NCBI GenBank assembly: GCA_964648855.1
Contig: CAZYLT010000015.1
Span: 28,682-60,681 of the forward strand
Length of the DNA: 32,000 bases
Source of the DNA: an uncultured archaeon
GTDB lineage: Archaea > Asgardarchaeota > Thorarchaeia > Thorarchaeales > Thorarchaeaceae
Direction: 5' to 3'
How positions within the stretch are numbered: the stretch's first letter is position 1; every line of letters starts with the position of its first letter. The notes under the pieces were generated by a model. That model was not told the origin of the DNA and ran no database searches. It worked only from the letters and a program-made list of their open reading frames with translations. The translations under genes were made by a program, and so were the position numbers. This document shows positions 8,477-27,166 of this stretch, one piece after another.

Positions 8477-9505
8477 CTACTTTATCCCCATTGTTAGAGC
8501 CATTATTGCCTTTTGTACATGAAGCCTGTTTTCCGCAACATCATAGACGATGCTCTTTTCACTGTCGACCACGTCATCCGTGACTTCAGAGTTCCTGTCA
8601 ACGGGCCCGCAGTGAGTGAAGAATGCATCGTTTGTCTTTGCCATCCAATCCTTAGTGGTTATCCAATCATCGTGCTTCATTGCCCGCTCAATTTCTATCT
8701 TCTTCGAGGCATCAACGCCATGCTTATTCATATTATCATAGAAGTCAGCCGTCATCCAATTACGAGAGTAGACAAAATCAGCGCCATCATATCCCGTCTC
8801 CAAATCATGAACAATGTCGAATCCTCCTCCAGAAGCATCCGCATTTTCTTCACACCACTTAATCACTTCAGGGTCCAAGTCGTATCCTTTAGGGTGTGCT
8901 AATGTCACATCCATGCCGAGCCGAGTATTTATGAGAATACTTTCCTGTATTGAACACCAAGATCGAACAAGGGCGCCCTTTCCCCATACTTGGAGGATCT
9001 TTTTCCCTTTCAGGTCCTTTCCACCGTGCATCCGCATACCCATAACATCTGCGAATCCTTGGCATGGGTGAAATCTATCATGAGCCATTGATATGATTGG
9101 CACAGAGGCATATTTCGCGTATTCCTCAAGGAGTTCATGTCCCTGCCCATATTCTTCAACTGCGGTCTCCAAAACTCTGAGACCTATTCCGCAAGAATAT
9201 CTGCTCATGACTTCTGCTGCATCCTGAACAGTTTCACCTGCACTTTTTGAAGTCTTGAGTCTCATGCTTTTCGGTTCAAGAAACTGAGCATGACCTCCCA
9301 GTTCAGTTGCGGCAGCTTCAAAGGATTGTCGAGTTCTAACAGAGGGATTATAGAAGAACATCATGAAGGTCCTTCGATCCAAACAGTTCCTCAGTGGATG
9401 GTTGAATCGGTTCTTCTTGAAATCGAAAGAGAGGTCGAGCGTTTTCTCAATCTCATCAACACTCCAGTCTTGCGTAGTAAGTAGGTCGCGGCCGTGTAGA
9501 TTCAT
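8477..9505 (-). CDS. Transcarbamylase of the N-acetylornithine carbamoyltransferase (ArgF'/knotted) type, atypical active site
   Basis: FFYNPSVRTRQSFE carbamoyl-phosphate motif, HPCQ, HCGP in place of HCLP, AENRLHVQKAIM. The N-terminal TQDWS and the TRLGMDVTL segment resemble AOTCase. Confidence 0.85.
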   Translation of the reverse strand: MNLHGRDLLTTQDWSVDEIEKTLDLSFDFKKNRFNHPLRNCLDRRTFMMFFYNPSVRTRQSFEAAATELGGHAQFLEPKSMRLKTSKSAGETVQDAAEVMSRYSCGIGLRVLETAVEEYGQGHELLEEYAKYASVPIISMAHDRFHPCQGFADVMGMRMHGGKDLKGKKILQVWGKGALVRSWCSIQESILINTRLGMDVTLAHPKGYDLDPEVIKWCEENADASGGGFDIVHDLETGYDGADFVYSRNWMTADFYDNMNKHGVDASKKIEIERAMKHDDWITTKDWMAKTNDAFFTHCGPVDRNSEVTDDVVDSEKSIVYDVAENRLHVQKAIMALTMGIK

Positions 9506-9555
9506 ACGCTAAGAGAAGAGGAGCTTCTCTATAACTCTTTCAGTCGCGAAAAGCA

Positions 9556-9828
9556 TCATGCGTAACGTGTAACATGAGGTATAGTTGGGCGAGGGTTGAA
9601 CTCTGATGGAGGACGATGGGGTTCATTACGAGAACTCCAAAACCTGCGAATCTCATCTCTTATACGATTGCGTAGAAGCAGATTCCCGTCTTCGTCGGTA
9701 CAATTGGCGCAATTCCTATTGTCCATATCTCTGCCACCGTAAAGCTCAATCTTCACCATGGCTTTTCCACATAACAAACAGTAGGTTACGCGCTAAAATT
9801 TGCTATCACCTACCAAGTAGGTCACCAT
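9556..9828 (-). pseudogene. Zinc-ribbon protein (CxxC...CxxC) interrupted by an in-frame TAG at 9793-9795; pseudogene, non-canonical start or read-through
   Basis: The frame reads MVTYLVGDSKF*RVTYCLLCGKAM...NRNCANCTDEDGNL. The ORF-track start (TTG 9777) would cut off the first Cys of CLLC. Confidence 0.5.
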
Positions 9829-9939
9829 TGGTAAATTAAGCGTCGTTACTAACACAACCAGATTACGTTGTTTTTCGCAGTATCTCGATATCAGTTATCT
9901 ATCTCGACTAAGAAATTGCGTTAAATTGTACGACCAGTT

Positions 9940-10245
9940 TCAATAGGAAATATTGAAGCCTGAGTAGGGCTTCCAAGCTTCTGAATATTCGGGTTCACCC
10001 TTGTAAGCAATCTTCAGAGAATCAACACGAGGGCGAACACCTAACGTCGTTCGTTCAAGATTTTTCAGTCGGCTGGCCAGCTGATTGATTTTTTCCTCAC
10101 TGCCCTCGCAGAACACTTCAACATCGCCGTTCCTAAGATTTCGCACTAGCCCCTCCAATCCCAACTCGTTAGCAATTTTCCTTGTAGTTGCTCTAAAACC
10201 AACGCCTTGAACCTTTCCACTAATTATCATCCTTGCTTTTGTCAA
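9940..10245 (-). CDS. acyP: Acylphosphatase
   Basis: ISGKVQGVGFR and GLVRNLRNGDVEV signatures; TTG start after GGAGG. Confidence 0.93.
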   Translation of the reverse strand: MTKARMIISGKVQGVGFRATTRKIANELGLEGLVRNLRNGDVEVFCEGSEEKINQLASRLKNLERTTLGVRPRVDSLKIAYKGEPEYSEAWKPYSGFNISY

Positions 10246-10317
10246 ACGTATACCTCCTCTTGGAACTGCAAATCATTAATCCACTGCAGAAGCTAATCAA
10301 AACATTCAGTCGGTCAC

Positions 10318-10566
10318 TCATTTTTCTTTTGATATCTCAATGAATGCATCAACAGCCATTTTGGCGCACGGTATGCGTACCCGTGATTTAGTAAATCTAT
10401 TTAGAATTACGTCATCTTCAAGCCAATAGAATTGCTGGTGAGCTAGATATTCTATTAGAAGATGAACAATATCCAACGCCTGCACCCAATAATCAATGGC
10501 ATACGCCCCTATTTTAATTATGAAAATGGTGAGCCCAAAAAGAACAATAAGATTACCCCATTCCAT
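10318..10566 (-). CDS. Hypothetical small protein with an N-terminal hydrophobic helix
   Basis: 82-aa ORF filling the gap between two co-oriented genes; no recognisable motif. Confidence 0.3.
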   Translation of the reverse strand: MEWGNLIVLFGLTIFIIKIGAYAIDYWVQALDIVHLLIEYLAHQQFYWLEDDVILNRFTKSRVRIPCAKMAVDAFIEISKEK

Positions 10567-10594
10567 TCGGGCTCAATTGTCAAGTGCATGCAAC

Positions 10595-11641
10595 CTAGCG
10601 CATCGTTAATGCCATTACGGCCTTCTGAGCGTGCATCCTGTTTTCTGCTTGATCGAAGACAATAGATTGTGGTCCATCAACGACTGAATTGGTGACCTCA
10701 AATCCGCGATCACAGGGCAGGCAATGCATGTAGTAGGCATTGGGTCCTGCAATCTTCATCTTCTCATCATCACAAATCCAATCCTTGTTTTTATCAAAGA
10801 CCTCTTGAGATTTCTCAAGCTCTGGCTTGTCATTAAATGGTGGAATGAACTCCTTGCAGGTCCAAGCCTTTGGATACACAACTTGGGCACCCTCAAAGGC
10901 CTCGTCCATATCATTCATGATTTCAAAGCTCGAGTCGTTCTTTTCAGCGTTCAGCTTGCAATGTTTGATGATCTCATCATCGAGTTCCATACCCTTGGGA
11001 TGAGCAAGAACAGTTTCCATCCCCATCTTCGTAGCTGCAATGATTGCGCTCTGTGGGACAGCAAGTGGTTTGTGAACTGATGGAGAATAAGCCCAGCTCA
11101 TAACAAATTTGACATCCTTGAAGGTACCGAACTTCTCCTTCACAGTCATGACATCTGCCAATGCCTGACATGGGTGGTATTTGTCATCTTCCATGTTAAT
11201 TACTGGACAATCTGCCCAGTAGGCAAAGTTGTTTATGATTTCGTTTGCCTTGCCATAAATCCATCCGACGGGGTCGCCATAACATCTGATGGCTATGCCT
11301 TGTCCCATTCGGGATAGAACCCGAGCTACATCCGAAACACGTTCTGTAGAATATGCTTCCTCATCGCCCTCAAGTGCAGGAGCATAGATCTTGCTTGGGT
11401 CGAGAAAGTGTGCATGGCCCCCGAGTTGTGTCATTCCAGCCTCGAATGAATTCCTGGTTCTGAGACTTGAATTGTAAAATATCATGAATAAGGTCTTAGC
11501 ATCTAGAAGCTTATGCGGTTCCCAGAGCGCGTATTTCTTTTTCAAATCAATAGCTACATCAAGGAGGGTTTCGATTTCCTCTTTCGTATAGTCTAGCAGA
11601 TTGATGTAATCTCTGCCTCTAAAACTCTCGGTCTTTACCAT
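10595..11641 (-). CDS. Knotted-type transcarbamylase (AOTCase/YgeW-like)
   Basis: FYNSSLRTRNSFE, HPCQALAD, WAYSPSVHKPLAVPQS (compare YgeW WAYSPSYGKPLSVPQG), VYPKAW, HCLP, QAENRMHAQKA. Confidence 0.9.
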   Translation of the reverse strand: MVKTESFRGRDYINLLDYTKEEIETLLDVAIDLKKKYALWEPHKLLDAKTLFMIFYNSSLRTRNSFEAGMTQLGGHAHFLDPSKIYAPALEGDEEAYSTERVSDVARVLSRMGQGIAIRCYGDPVGWIYGKANEIINNFAYWADCPVINMEDDKYHPCQALADVMTVKEKFGTFKDVKFVMSWAYSPSVHKPLAVPQSAIIAATKMGMETVLAHPKGMELDDEIIKHCKLNAEKNDSSFEIMNDMDEAFEGAQVVYPKAWTCKEFIPPFNDKPELEKSQEVFDKNKDWICDDEKMKIAGPNAYYMHCLPCDRGFEVTNSVVDGPQSIVFDQAENRMHAQKAVMALTMR

Positions 11642-11774: not shown

Positions 11775-14384
11775 ATGAAGAGGAAGATAGCGCATCTGGG
11801 TTTGAGCCTAATTGGCCCTGTCACTCTAATCGTTCTATTGAGCATTCCAATCGGTCCACTTGCAGGCGGCCTAGGAATCATTCAACCCCTTGGAGGAATC
11901 TTCGATGTTGGTATTGGTCTTGATAATAAGGCAGACCAGACAATTGTCTTGGACGGGATTGATGATGAAGTAGAAGTCATTATTGATAGATACGGAATTC
12001 CTCATATCTATGCACAGTCGGCTAGAGATGCCCATATGGCACTGGGCTATATGCATGCAAAAGAACGGCTTTTCCAGATGGTTTTGCAGAATAGCCTCGC
12101 AGCAGGGAGAATCAGTGAAATCGTTGGCTCTTATGCAAGCAGCAGTGACAAATTCTATCGGGCCATTGGACTAGCTCGTTCCGCTCAGGCAACTTACGAC
12201 TGGTATCTAGATAACAACGATAATCCAGATGTAGCCTATGCTTTGGAACTTGTGAATGCGGAAGTGGATGGAGTAAACGCATTCATTAGATCGATGACGA
12301 GTGCCTCGACACCTATCGAATTCAAGCTTCTAGGCGTAACACCTGAGCTTTGGCAACCAGTTGACATCTTCATCTGGGCAAAGATGATGACGTGGGGCCT
12401 GTCAGGGGGCATTCGTGATTTCACGCGAGAGTATATGAGAGCCACACTCCAAAACGATTCGATGCTGAACGAGGTGTATTTTGATGCTCAACCATATTCA
12501 GTCCCGATTATCCCAGAACAGACGAATCTGAGCCTGGGAGAATACCCAAATGCACCTGGAGATGTTCCAATAGGTTCATTGTCCACCGAAGTCCTTGATA
12601 GTTCCAAACTGGCTCTAGCAAGAATAGAGCCGCAAAAGACGAGGAGAATCATTGACACTCTGAAAAATGTCATACAACCCTTCGGTACAGAAGACCTTGT
12701 TGGAAGCAATAGTTGGGTTGTTGATGGAACCAAGTCATCAACAGGGTTTCCAATCCTTGCAAATGACCCTCATCTTGGGTTGCAAGCGCCTTCTCTATGG
12801 TATGAAGCACATATAGTAGTGCCGGGTCTGCTTGACGTGTCAGGCGTTTCATTTCCTGGACTGCCCGGGTTTGTATTGGGCTACACGAATCATATTGCGT
12901 GGGGTCTCACAAATGTCGGAGCAGATGTCCTCGATATCGTAGTTGAGAAGATAAATCCAGAAAATTCGAGTCAATACGAATACAATAATGAATGGAAGGA
13001 CTTCACGATTCATGATGAAACAATTCACACCAAAGAGGGCACGGAGATTCCATTCGAAGTAAAATGGTCCGTACATGGCCCCTGCATCGATTCAGTTGTT
13101 GAAACTCATGACAAGGATACCGATGCAGAGCCCAATCTCGCAATGATGTGGACTGGAAATCAAATTACGCATGAACTCTTGTCAATGGCGATATTAAACA
13201 AAGCGACTGGCATCGAGGATTACCATAAGTCGATGTACTGGTGGGACTCGCCGCCTCAGAATATTGTATATGCCGACGATGCAGGGAACATTGCAATGAC
13301 AGTAGCAGGTAGGTTTCCAATTCGATCCGGTTACACCGGTGAATTCCCGGTTCAGTTGTTGAACAACTCTGTAGGCTGGACCGGATACATTCCATTCGCC
13401 CATAATCCACGATCTGTGAATCCAGCACAGCACTATCTTCAGAGCGCAAATCAACAACCAATTAACTTCGATGATTATGGTTATCAGTTGCTTGGACCAT
13501 TCGCCTCTGGCTATAGAGGAAGACGAATAAATCAGCTCCTCAAAAATGATGAAAGTGTGACTATGGAGGATATGATGAGGTACCAAGCTGACTCCCTCGA
13601 CATTTCAGCAAGAGAAATTGTGCCCATTGTACTCGATGACTGGTCATCCCTTAACAACACGAATAATTCAATACAAGACCTTGTTGATGGACTTGAAGAT
13701 TGGGACTTTGTGATGAAGACAAATAGCACGGCTCCCACCATCTGGCTCTATCTTCAAAGTGCTCTCAACTACGAGGTGTTTGATGAAATCTGGACGGCGG
13801 GCTCTGACATAATGATGCCATTCATTCCAGTCTTAGAAAAAATGCTTAAAGAAAATAATACTTACTATCTGGATGATCATAGAACACAGAGCGTTATAGA
13901 AACACGTGATGACATTGTGCTCCGGGCTCTTCATCGGACCCTCAATCATCTTGTTTCGGAACTCGGAGTGAATGAAATCAATTGGCAATACGGAGAACAG
14001 CATATCATCGTCTTAGAGCATCTAGCAGGCCTGACCTATATTGGAGGAGGACCTCATCGAGGAAGTGGCTTCACTCTTAATGCAGCCTATGGTCGCAGGT
14101 CATCCGGTTGGCAGGAGAGATTTGTTGTTACATCGGGCCCGTCTTGGAGAATGGTGGCAAATCTGGGTGATATCGAGAATTCATACGGTGTGTATCCAGG
14201 TGGTCAGAGTGGTGTTCCATTCAGCGAACATTGGGCTGATTTATTCGATCTCTGGTATTCATTTGATGAATTTCTTGGATATTATGCATATCACAGGATG
14301 TACTACTATTCCACGCCAGCTGACTTCAGAAACAATGATATTGACGATAACTTGATTGAACGAACTATAACATTCGTCCCATAG
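11775..14384 (+). CDS. Penicillin acylase family (peptidase S45, Ntn hydrolase), membrane anchored
   Basis: N-terminal TM; DRYGIPHIYA, GYMHAKERLFQM, autoprocessing site GSNSW (Ser codon 12705-12707), LANDPHL, QNIVYAD, SANQ, GPSWR, PGGQSG. Confidence 0.93.
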   Translation: MKRKIAHLGLSLIGPVTLIVLLSIPIGPLAGGLGIIQPLGGIFDVGIGLDNKADQTIVLDGIDDEVEVIIDRYGIPHIYAQSARDAHMALGYMHAKERLFQMVLQNSLAAGRISEIVGSYASSSDKFYRAIGLARSAQATYDWYLDNNDNPDVAYALELVNAEVDGVNAFIRSMTSASTPIEFKLLGVTPELWQPVDIFIWAKMMTWGLSGGIRDFTREYMRATLQNDSMLNEVYFDAQPYSVPIIPEQTNLSLGEYPNAPGDVPIGSLSTEVLDSSKLALARIEPQKTRRIIDTLKNVIQPFGTEDLVGSNSWVVDGTKSSTGFPILANDPHLGLQAPSLWYEAHIVVPGLLDVSGVSFPGLPGFVLGYTNHIAWGLTNVGADVLDIVVEKINPENSSQYEYNNEWKDFTIHDETIHTKEGTEIPFEVKWSVHGPCIDSVVETHDKDTDAEPNLAMMWTGNQITHELLSMAILNKATGIEDYHKSMYWWDSPPQNIVYADDAGNIAMTVAGRFPIRSGYTGEFPVQLLNNSVGWTGYIPFAHNPRSVNPAQHYLQSANQQPINFDDYGYQLLGPFASGYRGRRINQLLKNDESVTMEDMMRYQADSLDISAREIVPIVLDDWSSLNNTNNSIQDLVDGLEDWDFVMKTNSTAPTIWLYLQSALNYEVFDEIWTAGSDIMMPFIPVLEKMLKENNTYYLDDHRTQSVIETRDDIVLRALHRTLNHLVSELGVNEINWQYGEQHIIVLEHLAGLTYIGGGPHRGSGFTLNAAYGRRSSGWQERFVVTSGPSWRMVANLGDIENSYGVYPGGQSGVPFSEHWADLFDLWYSFDEFLGYYAYHRMYYYSTPADFRNNDIDDNLIERTITFVP

Positions 14385-25197: not shown

Positions 25198-25803
25198 TTA
25201 TCGTGATTTTTGCCTCAGATGCTGGTTGTGCATTTCTTCAAGGCGGACATAAATAGCATCGGCAAGATCTATCTCTAATTGGCTAATTGCATTTCGGGAA
25301 TTGACAAAGAATTCATCTAGCAGTTTTGGATCAGCACCCGCCGTCTCAAGTGAAATGGCATGAAATAGCATATCAAGCAAATCGGCAGCACGAACCACCC
25401 GCTCTTCTAACGACATGTCTTCAGGCTGTACGTCAATTTCAATAGGCAATAGGGTCATAACAGGTTCTATAATTCTCCTAAATGCCTTTGCCTCGGCCTT
25501 ATCTTTTCCTGCTCTCATTTTTGCACCGCCTAGTGCTACAGCCCTTTTTGGAATGTCAGAAATCTCAGCCTCTGATATGTCATGCAAGAGTGACATCGTC
25601 AGAACCCGATCGACACTGATATCTGCTCCCGATTCAAAAATGCTTCTTGATATGAGCAGTGCAACCAGAGATGAGCCCCACGAGTGAGCTGCCACTGACT
25701 CGTAGTCAGCCACATGGACACCAGCAATCTGCCATCCTGAACGGTGGATTCGTTTCAGAGTCTCCGCCTTCAGAAGGAAATCAATAATGTTGTCTTCAAG
25801 CAT
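25198..25803 (-). CDS. HD-domain hydrolase (YfbR/HDDC2-like 5'-deoxynucleotidase)
   Basis: LKRIHRSGW, ESVAAHSW, LLHDISEA..SDIP, ADLLDM. Start ATG 25803; the upstream extension in the ORF track overlaps a hairpin. Confidence 0.88.
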   Translation of the reverse strand: MLEDNIIDFLLKAETLKRIHRSGWQIAGVHVADYESVAAHSWGSSLVALLISRSIFESGADISVDRVLTMSLLHDISEAEISDIPKRAVALGGAKMRAGKDKAEAKAFRRIIEPVMTLLPIEIDVQPEDMSLEERVVRAADLLDMLFHAISLETAGADPKLLDEFFVNSRNAISQLEIDLADAIYVRLEEMHNQHLRQKSR

Positions 25804-25817
25804 TTGGAACAATCCCA

Positions 25818-25850
25818 AAAGTAATAGAAGGGGAGATGAATTTCTCCCCT
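25818..25850 (-). terminator. Hairpin after the BMP gene (terminator or mRNA-stabilising stem)
   Basis: Minus strand AGGGGAGA-aattca-TCTCCCCT (25829-25850) followed by TCTATTACTTTT, 16 nt after the BMP stop. Confidence 0.6.
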
Positions 25851-25866
25851 GAAATCCCATATTGAC

Positions 25867-26982
25867 CTATGGAGTGACTTCTATTGTGCCTTCTACTATC
25901 AAATCTTTATAGCCACTAATTGCTGCGATAGATGCCTTACTAATGTATGTGTTACTATACGTGAATTGAGTAATGTTTGCTCCACCATTGGAGAGGTCAT
26001 ATTCAAAGACCTCTCCACCAGGGAACCTATCCCAGAGCGTGGCATTCACAATTTCGTAAACCGCCCAATCGAAGTGTGGTACTACGCTAGTCGCAATATA
26101 CGAGGGTGCGGTGGGAATTTCTGGATCTGCCGTGCCATAGTAATCTAGGTTTGCTCCTGAAGCAATTACCAGTGGTAATCTGCCAGCGTTTCTTTGCTGA
26201 ATTGGAAATGCAGCTTCTGCACGAAACATAGCAGCTCGCACGCCAGGCATACTAGCTCGTACAGGTGCGAAAATCAAAGATATATTGTTCTGAACGAACA
26301 TCGTGTAAGTACGAGATTCCGCAGTACCAGTATCATTCCATGACCCCACATAGAGATTTTGTGTGATTCCTACATTCAAATCATAGGTTTCATTTGCTGC
26401 TTCCACACCCTGTATGAATCCAGCTACCAGATTGTCAGTAATTGGATCACCTACGACACCAGATAGAATTCCTATTTCCCCTGTGAAATTTGTGCTTCCA
26501 AAATATGGTTGCTCATTGGCCAAAAAGGCTGCTAAGACGCCGCCCAAAAAGGCAGCCTGCTCCGTAGCGAAAGTTGCTGATGCAACATTGTCCGCATTGA
26601 CTGCAGCGCCTAATATTGCAAATTGCTGGTCAGGGTACTGTGCTGCAACTGACTCTACAGCGGATTCCAAGTCAGAACCGATAGCCAAGATAAGCATGTA
26701 GTTCCCACTTTCTGCTAACTCTTCCATTAGTGTTTCTGCTTCAGCTACTGTAGAGGGTAATTCCTCAGGAATGTAATACTGCACTGTATAGTTTACAGAT
26801 ATATCGTCCATTCCTTGTCGGGCATTATCATCTCTATTCAAATCACCGAATCCAGGTTCTAGAGTCACAACTGCGATTCTTGGGGGCTCATACTGATTAG
26901 TGGTCAATAAAATGCCGCCCACTGCTCCAAAGACAATAACGATAATAACCAAGGACGTAATTATACCAGATTTTGAGCTCAA
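25867..26982 (-). CDS. BMP-family (PnrA/TmpC-like) ABC substrate-binding protein, membrane anchored
   Basis: N-terminal TM; GFGD, AAQYPDQQFA, NVASATFATEQAAFLGGVLAA, GFIQG, VGSWND, YDLSNGG. Start re-placed at TTG 26982 after GGAGG. Confidence 0.88.
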   Translation of the reverse strand: MSSKSGIITSLVIIVIVFGAVGGILLTTNQYEPPRIAVVTLEPGFGDLNRDDNARQGMDDISVNYTVQYYIPEELPSTVAEAETLMEELAESGNYMLILAIGSDLESAVESVAAQYPDQQFAILGAAVNADNVASATFATEQAAFLGGVLAAFLANEQPYFGSTNFTGEIGILSGVVGDPITDNLVAGFIQGVEAANETYDLNVGITQNLYVGSWNDTGTAESRTYTMFVQNNISLIFAPVRASMPGVRAAMFRAEAAFPIQQRNAGRLPLVIASGANLDYYGTADPEIPTAPSYIATSVVPHFDWAVYEIVNATLWDRFPGGEVFEYDLSNGGANITQFTYSNTYISKASIAAISGYKDLIVEGTIEVTP

Positions 26983-27166
26983 TGTGCTTCCTCCAGCGTC
27001 AATAATGGCATCTCGATGTCGCGCTGATTTAAACCTATTGGCTTGAGAAATCCAGTATGCCATGGTAGTATCATAAGCTTTCTCATAGCAAAAATTCTCT
27101 AAATCAAGAGCTATAAATACGGCGGAGTCTGATTACATATGCAACTAAGTATTGTAGGTGTTTGTA

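Follow-up and report, generated by a model that had tools for sequence, protein, structure and literature searches.

A carbamoyltransferase pair in an uncultured Thorarchaeon and its probable role in the energy-yielding breakdown of a ring compound

The transferase pair and its enzyme class

The stretch of DNA analysed here, referred to as the window, comprises 32,000 nucleotides of contig CAZYLT010000015.1 (positions 28,682 to 60,681) from an uncultured Thorarchaeota-type Asgard archaeon, whose genome (G000) has a size of 3.1 Mb and is 95% complete. It carries two carbamoyltransferase genes, TC1 and TC2, and an acylphosphatase gene, acyP, between them, all three co-oriented on the minus strand (Table 1). 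An initial annotation, made from the sequence of the window, had assigned these genes to a ureido or carbamoyl pathway of unspecified nature. Comparison with related archaea and with bacteria now suggests that the transferase pair probably allows ATP to be gained from both urea-like groups of a ring compound that the cell breaks down.

Table 1. Genes and other features of the window (aa, amino acids; ORF, open reading frame; AOTCase, N-acetylornithine carbamoyltransferase)
Feature	Position	Strand	Description
TC1	10595-11641	-	348 aa carbamoyltransferase; AOTCase-like scaffold, YgeW-like acceptor loops
82-aa ORF between TC1 and acyP	10318-10566	-	truncated remnant, probably not functional; no Pfam match
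acyP, acylphosphatase	9940-10245	-	101 aa, PF00708
Spacer upstream of TC2	9506-9939	.	434 bp; small ORFs without support as genes
TC2	8477-9505	-	342 aa carbamoyltransferase, second conserved clade
Penicillin-amidase (Ntn hydrolase) gene	11775-14384	+	membrane-anchored; divergent from TC1
PnrA/Bmp-type lipoprotein gene and adjoining HD-domain gene	25198-27063	-	nucleoside-binding lipoprotein; 5'-deoxynucleotidase-like

TC1 and TC2 are 39% identical to each other and both contain the OTCace_N and OTCace domains (Pfam, E 1e-32 to 1e-39). The initial annotation had described them as co-oriented paralogs with FYN(P/S)S(V/L)RT motifs and without the SMG loop of ornithine carbamoyltransferases (OTCases), and both descriptions were borne out: the motif reads FYNSSLRT in TC1 and FYNPSVRT in TC2, and the DxxxSMG loop is absent, with YPKAWT in TC1 and YSRNWM in TC2 in its place. 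The carbamoyl-phosphate motifs of TC1 are complete (SLRTR, HPCQ, HCLP). TC2 has SVRTR, HPCQ, Arg110 and His298..Pro301..Arg304, and every carbamoyl-phosphate-binding residue is kept in it, in invariant columns. The HxLP motif reads HCGP in the thorarchaeal and HPMP in the bacterial TC2 proteins, and in the alignment its Leu, which normally lines the carbamoyl-phosphate site, was never present in the TC2 clade. Both proteins thus carry the marks of the transcarbamylase superfamily (SxRT, HPxQ, HxLP and both Pfam domains), with the Leu of HxLP replaced in TC2.

The best NCBIfam model for both proteins was that of AOTCase (NF003384), at 287.6 bits for TC1 and 253.9 bits for TC2, both under its cut-off of 288. 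The OTCase models TIGR00658 and NF001986 gave 253 and 212-217 bits against cut-offs of 281 and 306, and the YgeW models TIGR03316 and NF005538 gave 130-161 bits for the two proteins (151-161 for TC1) against cut-offs of 453-500. G000 holds four members of the carbamoyltransferase family, namely TC1, TC2, ArgF and PyrB, and the canonical ArgF (429-442 bits) and PyrB (371 bits) lie on other contigs. Because ArgF and PyrB are encoded elsewhere, neither TC1 nor TC2 is taken to be the arginine (ornithine) or the pyrimidine enzyme of the cell.

The key residues of AOTCase are Glu92, Asn185 and Lys302 in the numbering of Xanthomonas campestris (PMC4581275). In a profile-to-PDB alignment of TC1, the corresponding residues were Thr99, Pro192 and Glu315, and Trp77 of AOTCase was not kept. 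Within the TC1 clade, Pro192 and Glu315 are invariant and Thr99 is at least 90% conserved. Neither the window nor the roughly 100 related loci that were examined contained arg genes. Judged by residues and gene context, TC1 and TC2 are predicted to be neither ornithine nor N-acetylornithine enzymes, in agreement with the initial annotation, which had set them apart from standard ornithine carbamoyltransferases.

AlphaFold models, each based on an alignment of orthologs (35 and 32 sequences), were confident and reached a predicted local distance difference test score (pLDDT) of 94-95. Both superposed best on X. campestris AOTCase (PDB 3kzc/3kzk), with a template modelling score (TM) of 0.87-0.88 and a root-mean-square deviation (rmsd) of 1.9-2.3 Å (TC1 against 3kzk: TM 0.88, rmsd 1.9), while OTCases and putrescine carbamoyltransferase (PTCase) fitted less well (TM 0.77-0.83, for the OTCases 0.78-0.83; rmsd 2.6-3.9 Å). 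The 120s loop is extended in both proteins, with insertions of 9-10 residues relative to Pyrococcus furiosus OTCase, and in TC1 has the length of the AOTCase loop. TC1 contains a proline-rich loop, WAYSPSVHKPLAVPQ, and TC2 an insertion of similar length without prolines, WGKGALVRSWCSIQ. TC1 resembles AOTCase in its loop lengths (extended 120s loop, insertion at the proline-rich loop, KxW-type 240s loop) and in the FxNxSxRT motif, and differs from it in having T/P/E at E92/N185/K302, in the loss of Trp77, in lacking an arginine-biosynthesis context in a genome that has ArgF, and in a role that would be catabolic.

The acceptor loops of TC1 are nearly those of another enzyme. Compared with Escherichia coli YgeW (sequence from NC_000913.3), whose proline-rich loop is WAYSPSYGKPLSVPQ, that of TC1 is identical at 12 of 15 positions. 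The 240s loop reads YPKAW in TC1, YPKSW in YgeW and YSRNW in TC2, the segment after it KDWIC in TC1 and KDWHC in YgeW, and the HxLP motif HCLP in both TC1 and YgeW and HCGP in TC2. The YgeW acceptor-loop pattern (WAYSPSxxKPLxVPQ, YPKxW, KDWxC) was accordingly found in TC1 and not in TC2. Its extended 120s loop and proline-rich loop place TC1 in the knotted type as Shi et al. define it from sequence (PMC4581275), and the evidence on the trefoil knot itself is the closest fold match of the predicted models, which is to the knotted AOTCase. Structure and sequence together support the earlier assignment of TC1 and TC2 to the AOTCase/YgeW (knotted-type) group rather than to the OTCases.

Bacterial operons and Asgard pathway genes

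A maximum-likelihood tree was inferred from TC1, TC2, E. coli YgeW, a Clostridium botulinum plasmid enzyme, ArgF, ArgI and PTCase. TC1 (Shimodaira-Hasegawa-like approximate likelihood ratio test, SH-aLRT, 98) and TC2 (96-100) formed separate clades, each mixing archaeal and bacterial sequences. TC1, TC2, YgeW and the plasmid enzyme grouped apart from ArgF, ArgI and PTCase (SH-aLRT 99). The TC1 of the window was nested among bacterial sequences, which suggests a transfer of TC1 between domains. Bacterial orthologs were 67-76% identical for TC1 and 55-66% for TC2, and their hosts belong to Anaerolineae and other Chloroflexota, Eisenbacteria, Caldisericota, Gemmatimonadota, Myxococcota, Actinomycetota and others.

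The setting of these orthologs is best read against the reductive urate pathway, which was solved in 2025 (PMC12507026; bioRxiv 10.1101/2025.04.24.650524; commentary PMC12990295). Urate is reduced to 2,8-dioxopurine and then once more, SsnA and HyuA open the ring to 2,3-diureidopropanoate, YgeW splits off one ureido group with phosphate and ATP is formed by carbamate kinase, after which YgeY hydrolyses the second ureido group and YgeX degrades diaminopropanoate (PMC12507026; bioRxiv 10.1101/2025.04.24.650524). In Clostridioides difficile a hydrolase takes the place of YgeW, and the urate-pathway papers colour any PF00185 protein 'YgeW' and mention neither a second transferase nor archaea (PMC12507026; bioRxiv 10.1101/2025.04.24.650524; PMC12990295). 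No description of a two-transferase variant was found in the literature.

Bacterial counts refer to 47 loci. TC2 was found in 33 of the 40 loci with enough sequence downstream of TC1, directly adjacent and on the same strand in 24, and a carbamate kinase came next in 24/36 (431 bits, above the cut-off). TC1 and TC2 of the window are orthologous to the transferases of this TC1-TC2-carbamate kinase operon. Near the bacterial pair lay genes for the Xdh FAD subunit (12 loci), adenine deaminase (10), a true YgeY hydrolase (454 bits; 6) and a GntR regulator (6), and other neighbours were nucleoside ABC transporters and a xanthine/uracil permease. A Gemmatimonadota locus (L060) comprises, in this order, genes for a molybdenum cofactor (MoCo)-binding subunit, PreT-like and PreA-like proteins, SsnA (554 bits) and a second pyridoxal phosphate (PLP)-dependent enzyme (Pfam PALP, 348 aa), and then TC1, TC2, carbamate kinase, a ThrC-like enzyme, a xanthine/uracil permease, a MobA-like protein and the Xdh FAD subunit. 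XdhD-like and SsnA genes stand upstream of TC1 in L076, HyuA is present in L070, and L080 and L097 have TC1 and carbamate kinase without an adjacent TC2.

Five operon-carrying bacterial genomes were tested for marker families, with 14 control genomes for SsnA. SsnA scored above its cut-off in 4/5 operon genomes against 1/14 controls and D-hydantoinase in 4/5, while true YgeW was found in one and YgeY in two of the five, and the same search found YgeX in none of them. The bacterial operon is associated with SsnA, hydantoinase, Xdh and YgeY genes. Because the orthologous pair sits with carbamate kinase in reductive urate clusters, where 2,3-diureidopropanoate is the intermediate, the comparative evidence favours the earlier idea that two carbamoyl groups are removed in sequence from a di-ureido compound.

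The ThrC-like enzyme of L060 recurs after TC1-TC2-carbamate kinase in a total of 10 bacterial loci (L060, L062, L063, L069, L072, L073, L076, L079, L081, L098). I considered this PLP enzyme as a diaminopropionate ammonia-lyase of the YgeX type and rejected the assignment, as it is threonine-synthase-like instead (~417 aa, NF006050, 308 bits); it may be a non-orthologous replacement for YgeX. For the HEAT-repeat and unknown genes upstream of TC1 in a myxobacterial locus, no homolog was found in G000.

Neither carbamate kinase nor arginine deiminase was found within the window, as the initial annotation had stated, though a true carbamate kinase is encoded elsewhere in G000 (C3:238504-239430; 385 bits, cut-off 358), and this enzyme is 69% identical to the kinase of the bacterial operon. 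The arginine deiminase family PF02274 gave weak matches only in G000 (~30 bits). The genome also holds an SsnA-like amidohydrolase, for which SsnA is the best model (375-389 bits, under the cut-offs), a hydantoinase-like gene (307 bits, under the cut-off), and PreA-like and PreT-like genes. Carbamate kinase, SsnA-like and hydantoinase-like genes are present in G000 and scattered. A purine cluster around the SsnA-like gene was rejected from its neighbours (ABC ATPase, HEAT-repeat protein, DUF362 protein, radical SAM protein), as was one around the carbamate kinase (DNA ligase, Mo-oxidoreductase-like protein). A pyrimidine cluster around the hydantoinase-like gene was likewise rejected; that region has two tungsten aldehyde:ferredoxin oxidoreductases and no obvious pyrimidine genes. 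There (L127, C6:94000-113000) the hydantoinase-like and PreA-like (DHO_dh) genes each adjoin one of these tungsten-type enzymes (628 and 645 aa), each with a small partner of ~160 aa. In a genome without xanthine dehydrogenase, the tungsten enzymes could be heterocycle reductases.

Nearly all genomes of the family carry TC2 (with or without TC1), carbamate kinase, SsnA-like and hydantoinase-like genes. In G014 (91% complete) TC1, TC2 and these three are missing together, which is only suggestive of a pathway link because it is a single event among related genomes. A TC1-like/TC2-like pair in G035 abuts two amidohydrolases, and G000 has orthologs of both (49% and 51% identical); in G029 the hydantoinase-like gene adjoins the SsnA-like gene. 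TC1 and TC2 are separated by 112-132 bp in G003, G010, G018 and G024. Five near-complete Thorarchaeal genomes have TC2 without TC1 (G004, G009, G013, G019, G023; L019-L023), and in all five a carbon-nitrogen hydrolase of the beta-ureidopropionase type (187 bits, PDB 2vhh) lies beside TC2 or at most 2.2 kb away. These genomes again pair one transferase with one decarbamoylating hydrolase, in line with the published combination of the two enzyme types at successive steps. The same hydrolase occurs next to a second dihydropyrimidinase paralog in eight genomes with both TC1 and TC2, and because these eight carry both, a strict either/or of TC1 and hydrolase was rejected.

A proposed two-transferase route and its alternatives

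The closest described system is E. coli YgeW (YTCase) with its carbamate kinase YqeA, and YgeW falls into the same superclade as TC1 in the tree. The two share the proline-rich loop, YPKxW and KDWxC, bacterial TC1 orthologs adjoin carbamate kinase, SsnA, HyuA, YgeY and Xdh genes, and the chemistry proposed for TC1 is that of YgeW, phosphorolysis of a ureido group of 2,3-diureidopropanoate. TC1 is, however, just 31-32% identical to YgeW (~396 aa) and far under the YgeW model cut-offs, is ~50 residues shorter, lacks the extra terminal helices and long 240s insertions, and has an extended, AOTCase-like 80s loop. The systems differ as well: here there are two transferases rather than a transferase and the YgeY hydrolase, the host is an archaeon whose transferase genes are unclustered with the rest of the pathway, and carbamate kinase, which comes next to the pair in 24/36 bacterial loci, lies on contig C3 in G000.

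A compact relative is encoded on the C. botulinum plasmid pCN1 (NZ_CP063818.1, L124 8939-27898), where a 327-aa 'ornithine carbamoyltransferase', 44% identical to TC1, occupies the ygeW position in a complete urate-type cluster, xdh-dpaL-hydA-ygeY. Its WAY..KP.SVP and PKNW loops are of the same type as those of TC1, and it does not have the length of YgeW. Unlike the TC pair it is a single transferase accompanied by a YgeY hydrolase, and it groups with YgeW outside the TC1 clade (on a long branch, so that its placement is uncertain). A reaction of the kind proposed here is known in the opposite direction: L-2,3-diaminopropionate transcarbamylase (DPTCase), an enzyme of viomycin and zwittermicin biosynthesis, converts diaminopropionate to its 3-ureido derivative, albizziin, and back (PMC4581275), and one of TC1 and TC2 is proposed to run this reaction in reverse. 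DPTCase is anabolic, unlike the proposed role of the pair, and falls within the unknotted OTCase branch; it carries (T/S)RWQTTG and HDLP motifs (PMC4581275), neither of which is found in TC1 or TC2.

The reading that I consider fairly probable is that TC1 and TC2 are two different catabolic carbamoyltransferases, which phosphorolyse ureido acids from a reduced purine-type ring opened by amidohydrolases. TC1 would take YgeW's step because it has YgeW's acceptor loops, and would convert 2,3-diureidopropanoate (or a close analogue) and phosphate to a mono-ureido-diaminopropanoate and carbamoyl phosphate. TC2, with its different acceptor site, would remove the second ureido group, a step left to the hydrolase YgeY in E. 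coli. Carbamate kinase would turn the carbamoyl phosphate into ATP, and because both carbamoyl groups would reach the kinase, the yield could be two ATP per ring instead of one.

Several observations weigh against this. The substrates are assigned from loop similarity and gene neighbourhood, and I infer those of Thorarchaeota by orthology, as I do the order of the steps, the ATP yield and the heterocycle that this archaeon would degrade. Only 12/29 Asgard loci have the two transferase genes no more than 8 kb apart, and the carbamate kinase, SsnA-like and hydantoinase-like genes of G000 are unclustered, on other contigs and among unrelated neighbours. With the queries used, G000 yielded neither the Mo nor the FAD subunit of Xdh and no orthologs of YgeY or YgeX. 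The tree covers YgeW, the plasmid enzyme, ArgF, ArgI and PTCase besides the pair, and a search of the plasmid collection for sequences named AOTCase or N-succinylornithine carbamoyltransferase (SOTCase) found none. In Thorarchaeota the conserved genes around the pair encode a peptide ABC transporter and a membrane protein as well as an exported hydrolase of the penicillin-amidase type, which suggests the uptake of peptides or acyl-amides and not purines.

It is unlikely, though less so than for the other alternatives, that the two transferases act in parallel, TC1 on the purine-derived ureide and TC2 on another mono-ureido acid, such as N-carbamoyl-beta-alanine or N-carbamoyl-beta-aminoisobutyrate from reductive pyrimidine breakdown, with both feeding carbamate kinase. 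Such a division would agree with the five TC2-only Thorarchaeal genomes, where TC2 stands near the beta-ureidopropionase-type hydrolase, with the eight other relatives in which this hydrolase is found beside the second dihydropyrimidinase paralog, and with the hydantoinase/dihydropyrimidinase-like, PreA-like and PreT-like genes of G000; a catabolic beta-alanine transcarbamylase has also been proposed but never found (PMC4581275). Yet bacterial TC2 is almost always immediately downstream of TC1 and in purine-type contexts, and a hydrolase and a transferase for one substrate would be redundant, whereas one of each at successive steps fits the logic of E. coli and C. difficile. The pair could also form one heteromeric enzyme, a mixed trimer that acts on a single substrate. 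The genes are adjacent, co-oriented, anciently duplicated and kept together across phyla, the active sites of the superfamily are located where subunits meet (PMC4581275), and the HxLP motif of TC2 is altered. An obligate heteromer is nonetheless unlikely because of the five TC2-only genomes, which are near-complete, and of L080 and L097, where TC1 and carbamate kinase occur without an adjacent TC2; the distance between TC1 and TC2 exceeds 8 kb in most Asgard loci, every carbamoyl-phosphate-binding residue is kept in TC2, and overall the heteromer appears improbable.

The initial annotation had suggested that acyP pulls the reaction forward by hydrolysing carbamoyl phosphate, and this part of it was not supported. 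It had correctly placed an acylphosphatase between the pair, and the gene is intact: acyP scored 71 bits against the PF00708 cut-off of 22.5, matched profile positions 2-62 of 85, and has the motifs with the catalytic Arg and Asn (GKVQGVGFR, VRNLRNGDVE). It is the only stand-alone acylphosphatase in G000, as the other PF00708 match is the N-terminal domain of a 796-aa HypF-type ORF. Three relatives, G001, G006 and G021, were the only ones with acyP orthologs; these are 63-83% identical and in every case stand between the transferase genes. The gene lies between the pair in 3/33 Asgard loci and 0/47 bacterial loci. The synteny that the initial annotation had proposed to check is therefore not kept in relatives beyond these three, and because acyP is confined to these genomes and G000 and absent from all 47 bacterial loci, its linkage is lineage-specific. 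From this distribution acyP is read as a recent insertion in one small lineage, outside the conserved module.

Acylphosphatases hydrolyse carbamoyl phosphate in vitro, and acyP could in this way draw off the product of both transferases and pull decarbamoylation without ATP. In keeping with this, the gene is intact, co-oriented and kept between the pair in four genomes of two genera. Within genus g6, which shares the acyP insertion, the carbamate kinase gene has an in-frame TGA in G006 (C31:27969-28910), and in G021 (87% complete) no carbamate kinase was found. The idea is nevertheless very improbable as a general explanation: acyP is absent there in all other relatives and in the bacterial loci, carbamate kinase is intact in G000 and G001, discarding carbamoyl phosphate would defeat the point of using a transferase over a hydrolase, and acyP stands among decayed remnants in G000. 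A local role in carbamoyl phosphate disposal is conceivable, and in the conserved module the partner that pulls the reaction would be carbamate kinase. That TC1 and TC2 are anabolic N-acyl-ornithine carbamoyltransferases of arginine synthesis, as database names say, can hardly be correct. AOTCase is the best profile model, with TC1 just under its cut-off, and the best structural match, and wherever the best-matching protein clusters are named (at least ~240 of them), the public names are 'N-acetylornithine carbamoyltransferase' or 'ornithine carbamoyltransferase'. But the AOTCase key residues are not kept in TC1, a canonical ArgF is present, and in about 100 loci carbamate kinase is the standard neighbour and arg genes are missing. 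The names mislead metabolic reconstructions of arginine synthesis in these lineages.

Sequential phosphorolysis by two catabolic transferases thus remains the preferred reading, and a wider version of it can be offered tentatively. Thorarchaeia and many uncultured anaerobic bacteria might share an undescribed reductive fermentation of purine-type rings with two transferases and two ATP, in which TC2 would be a new mono-ureido-diaminopropanoate phosphorylase and Thorarchaeota would enter the route without xanthine dehydrogenase, possibly by way of tungsten enzymes or of a different heterocycle. The published anaerobic urate pathway is described as bacterial and has one transferase and one hydrolase. 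If true, a widespread two-transferase version would double the ATP yield of the urate pathway, would add a new specificity to a well-studied enzyme superfamily, and would bring Asgard archaea from anoxic sediments into the range of this fermentation. The published dispute on which ureido group YgeW removes first might also be approachable with a system in which each group has its own enzyme.

Other features around the pair

The ORF between TC1 and acyP retains a 44-residue segment that is 41-45% identical to a gene of ~200-260 aa that other Thorarchaeota carry next to TC1 and TC2 or between them (matches in L009, L014 and L024). Because only this stretch of the longer gene is left, the ORF is a remnant and is probably not functional. 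In the spacer upstream of TC2, a 73-aa ORF had no Pfam match. Part of the spacer (~9626-9811) is also conserved ahead of TC2 in the relative G008 (48% over 62 codons, L009), and this conservation suggests that TC2 has its own upstream control region.

The penicillin-amidase gene that diverges from TC1 has the same position in 22/33 Asgard loci. An Opp-type peptide ABC transporter and a 293-aa membrane protein are encoded on the other side of TC2 and are kept together with it. Further along the window, the PnrA/Bmp-type lipoprotein gene adjoins the gene for the HD-domain protein, and PnrA-type transporters also flank the TC1-TC2-carbamate kinase operons of Eisenbacteria.

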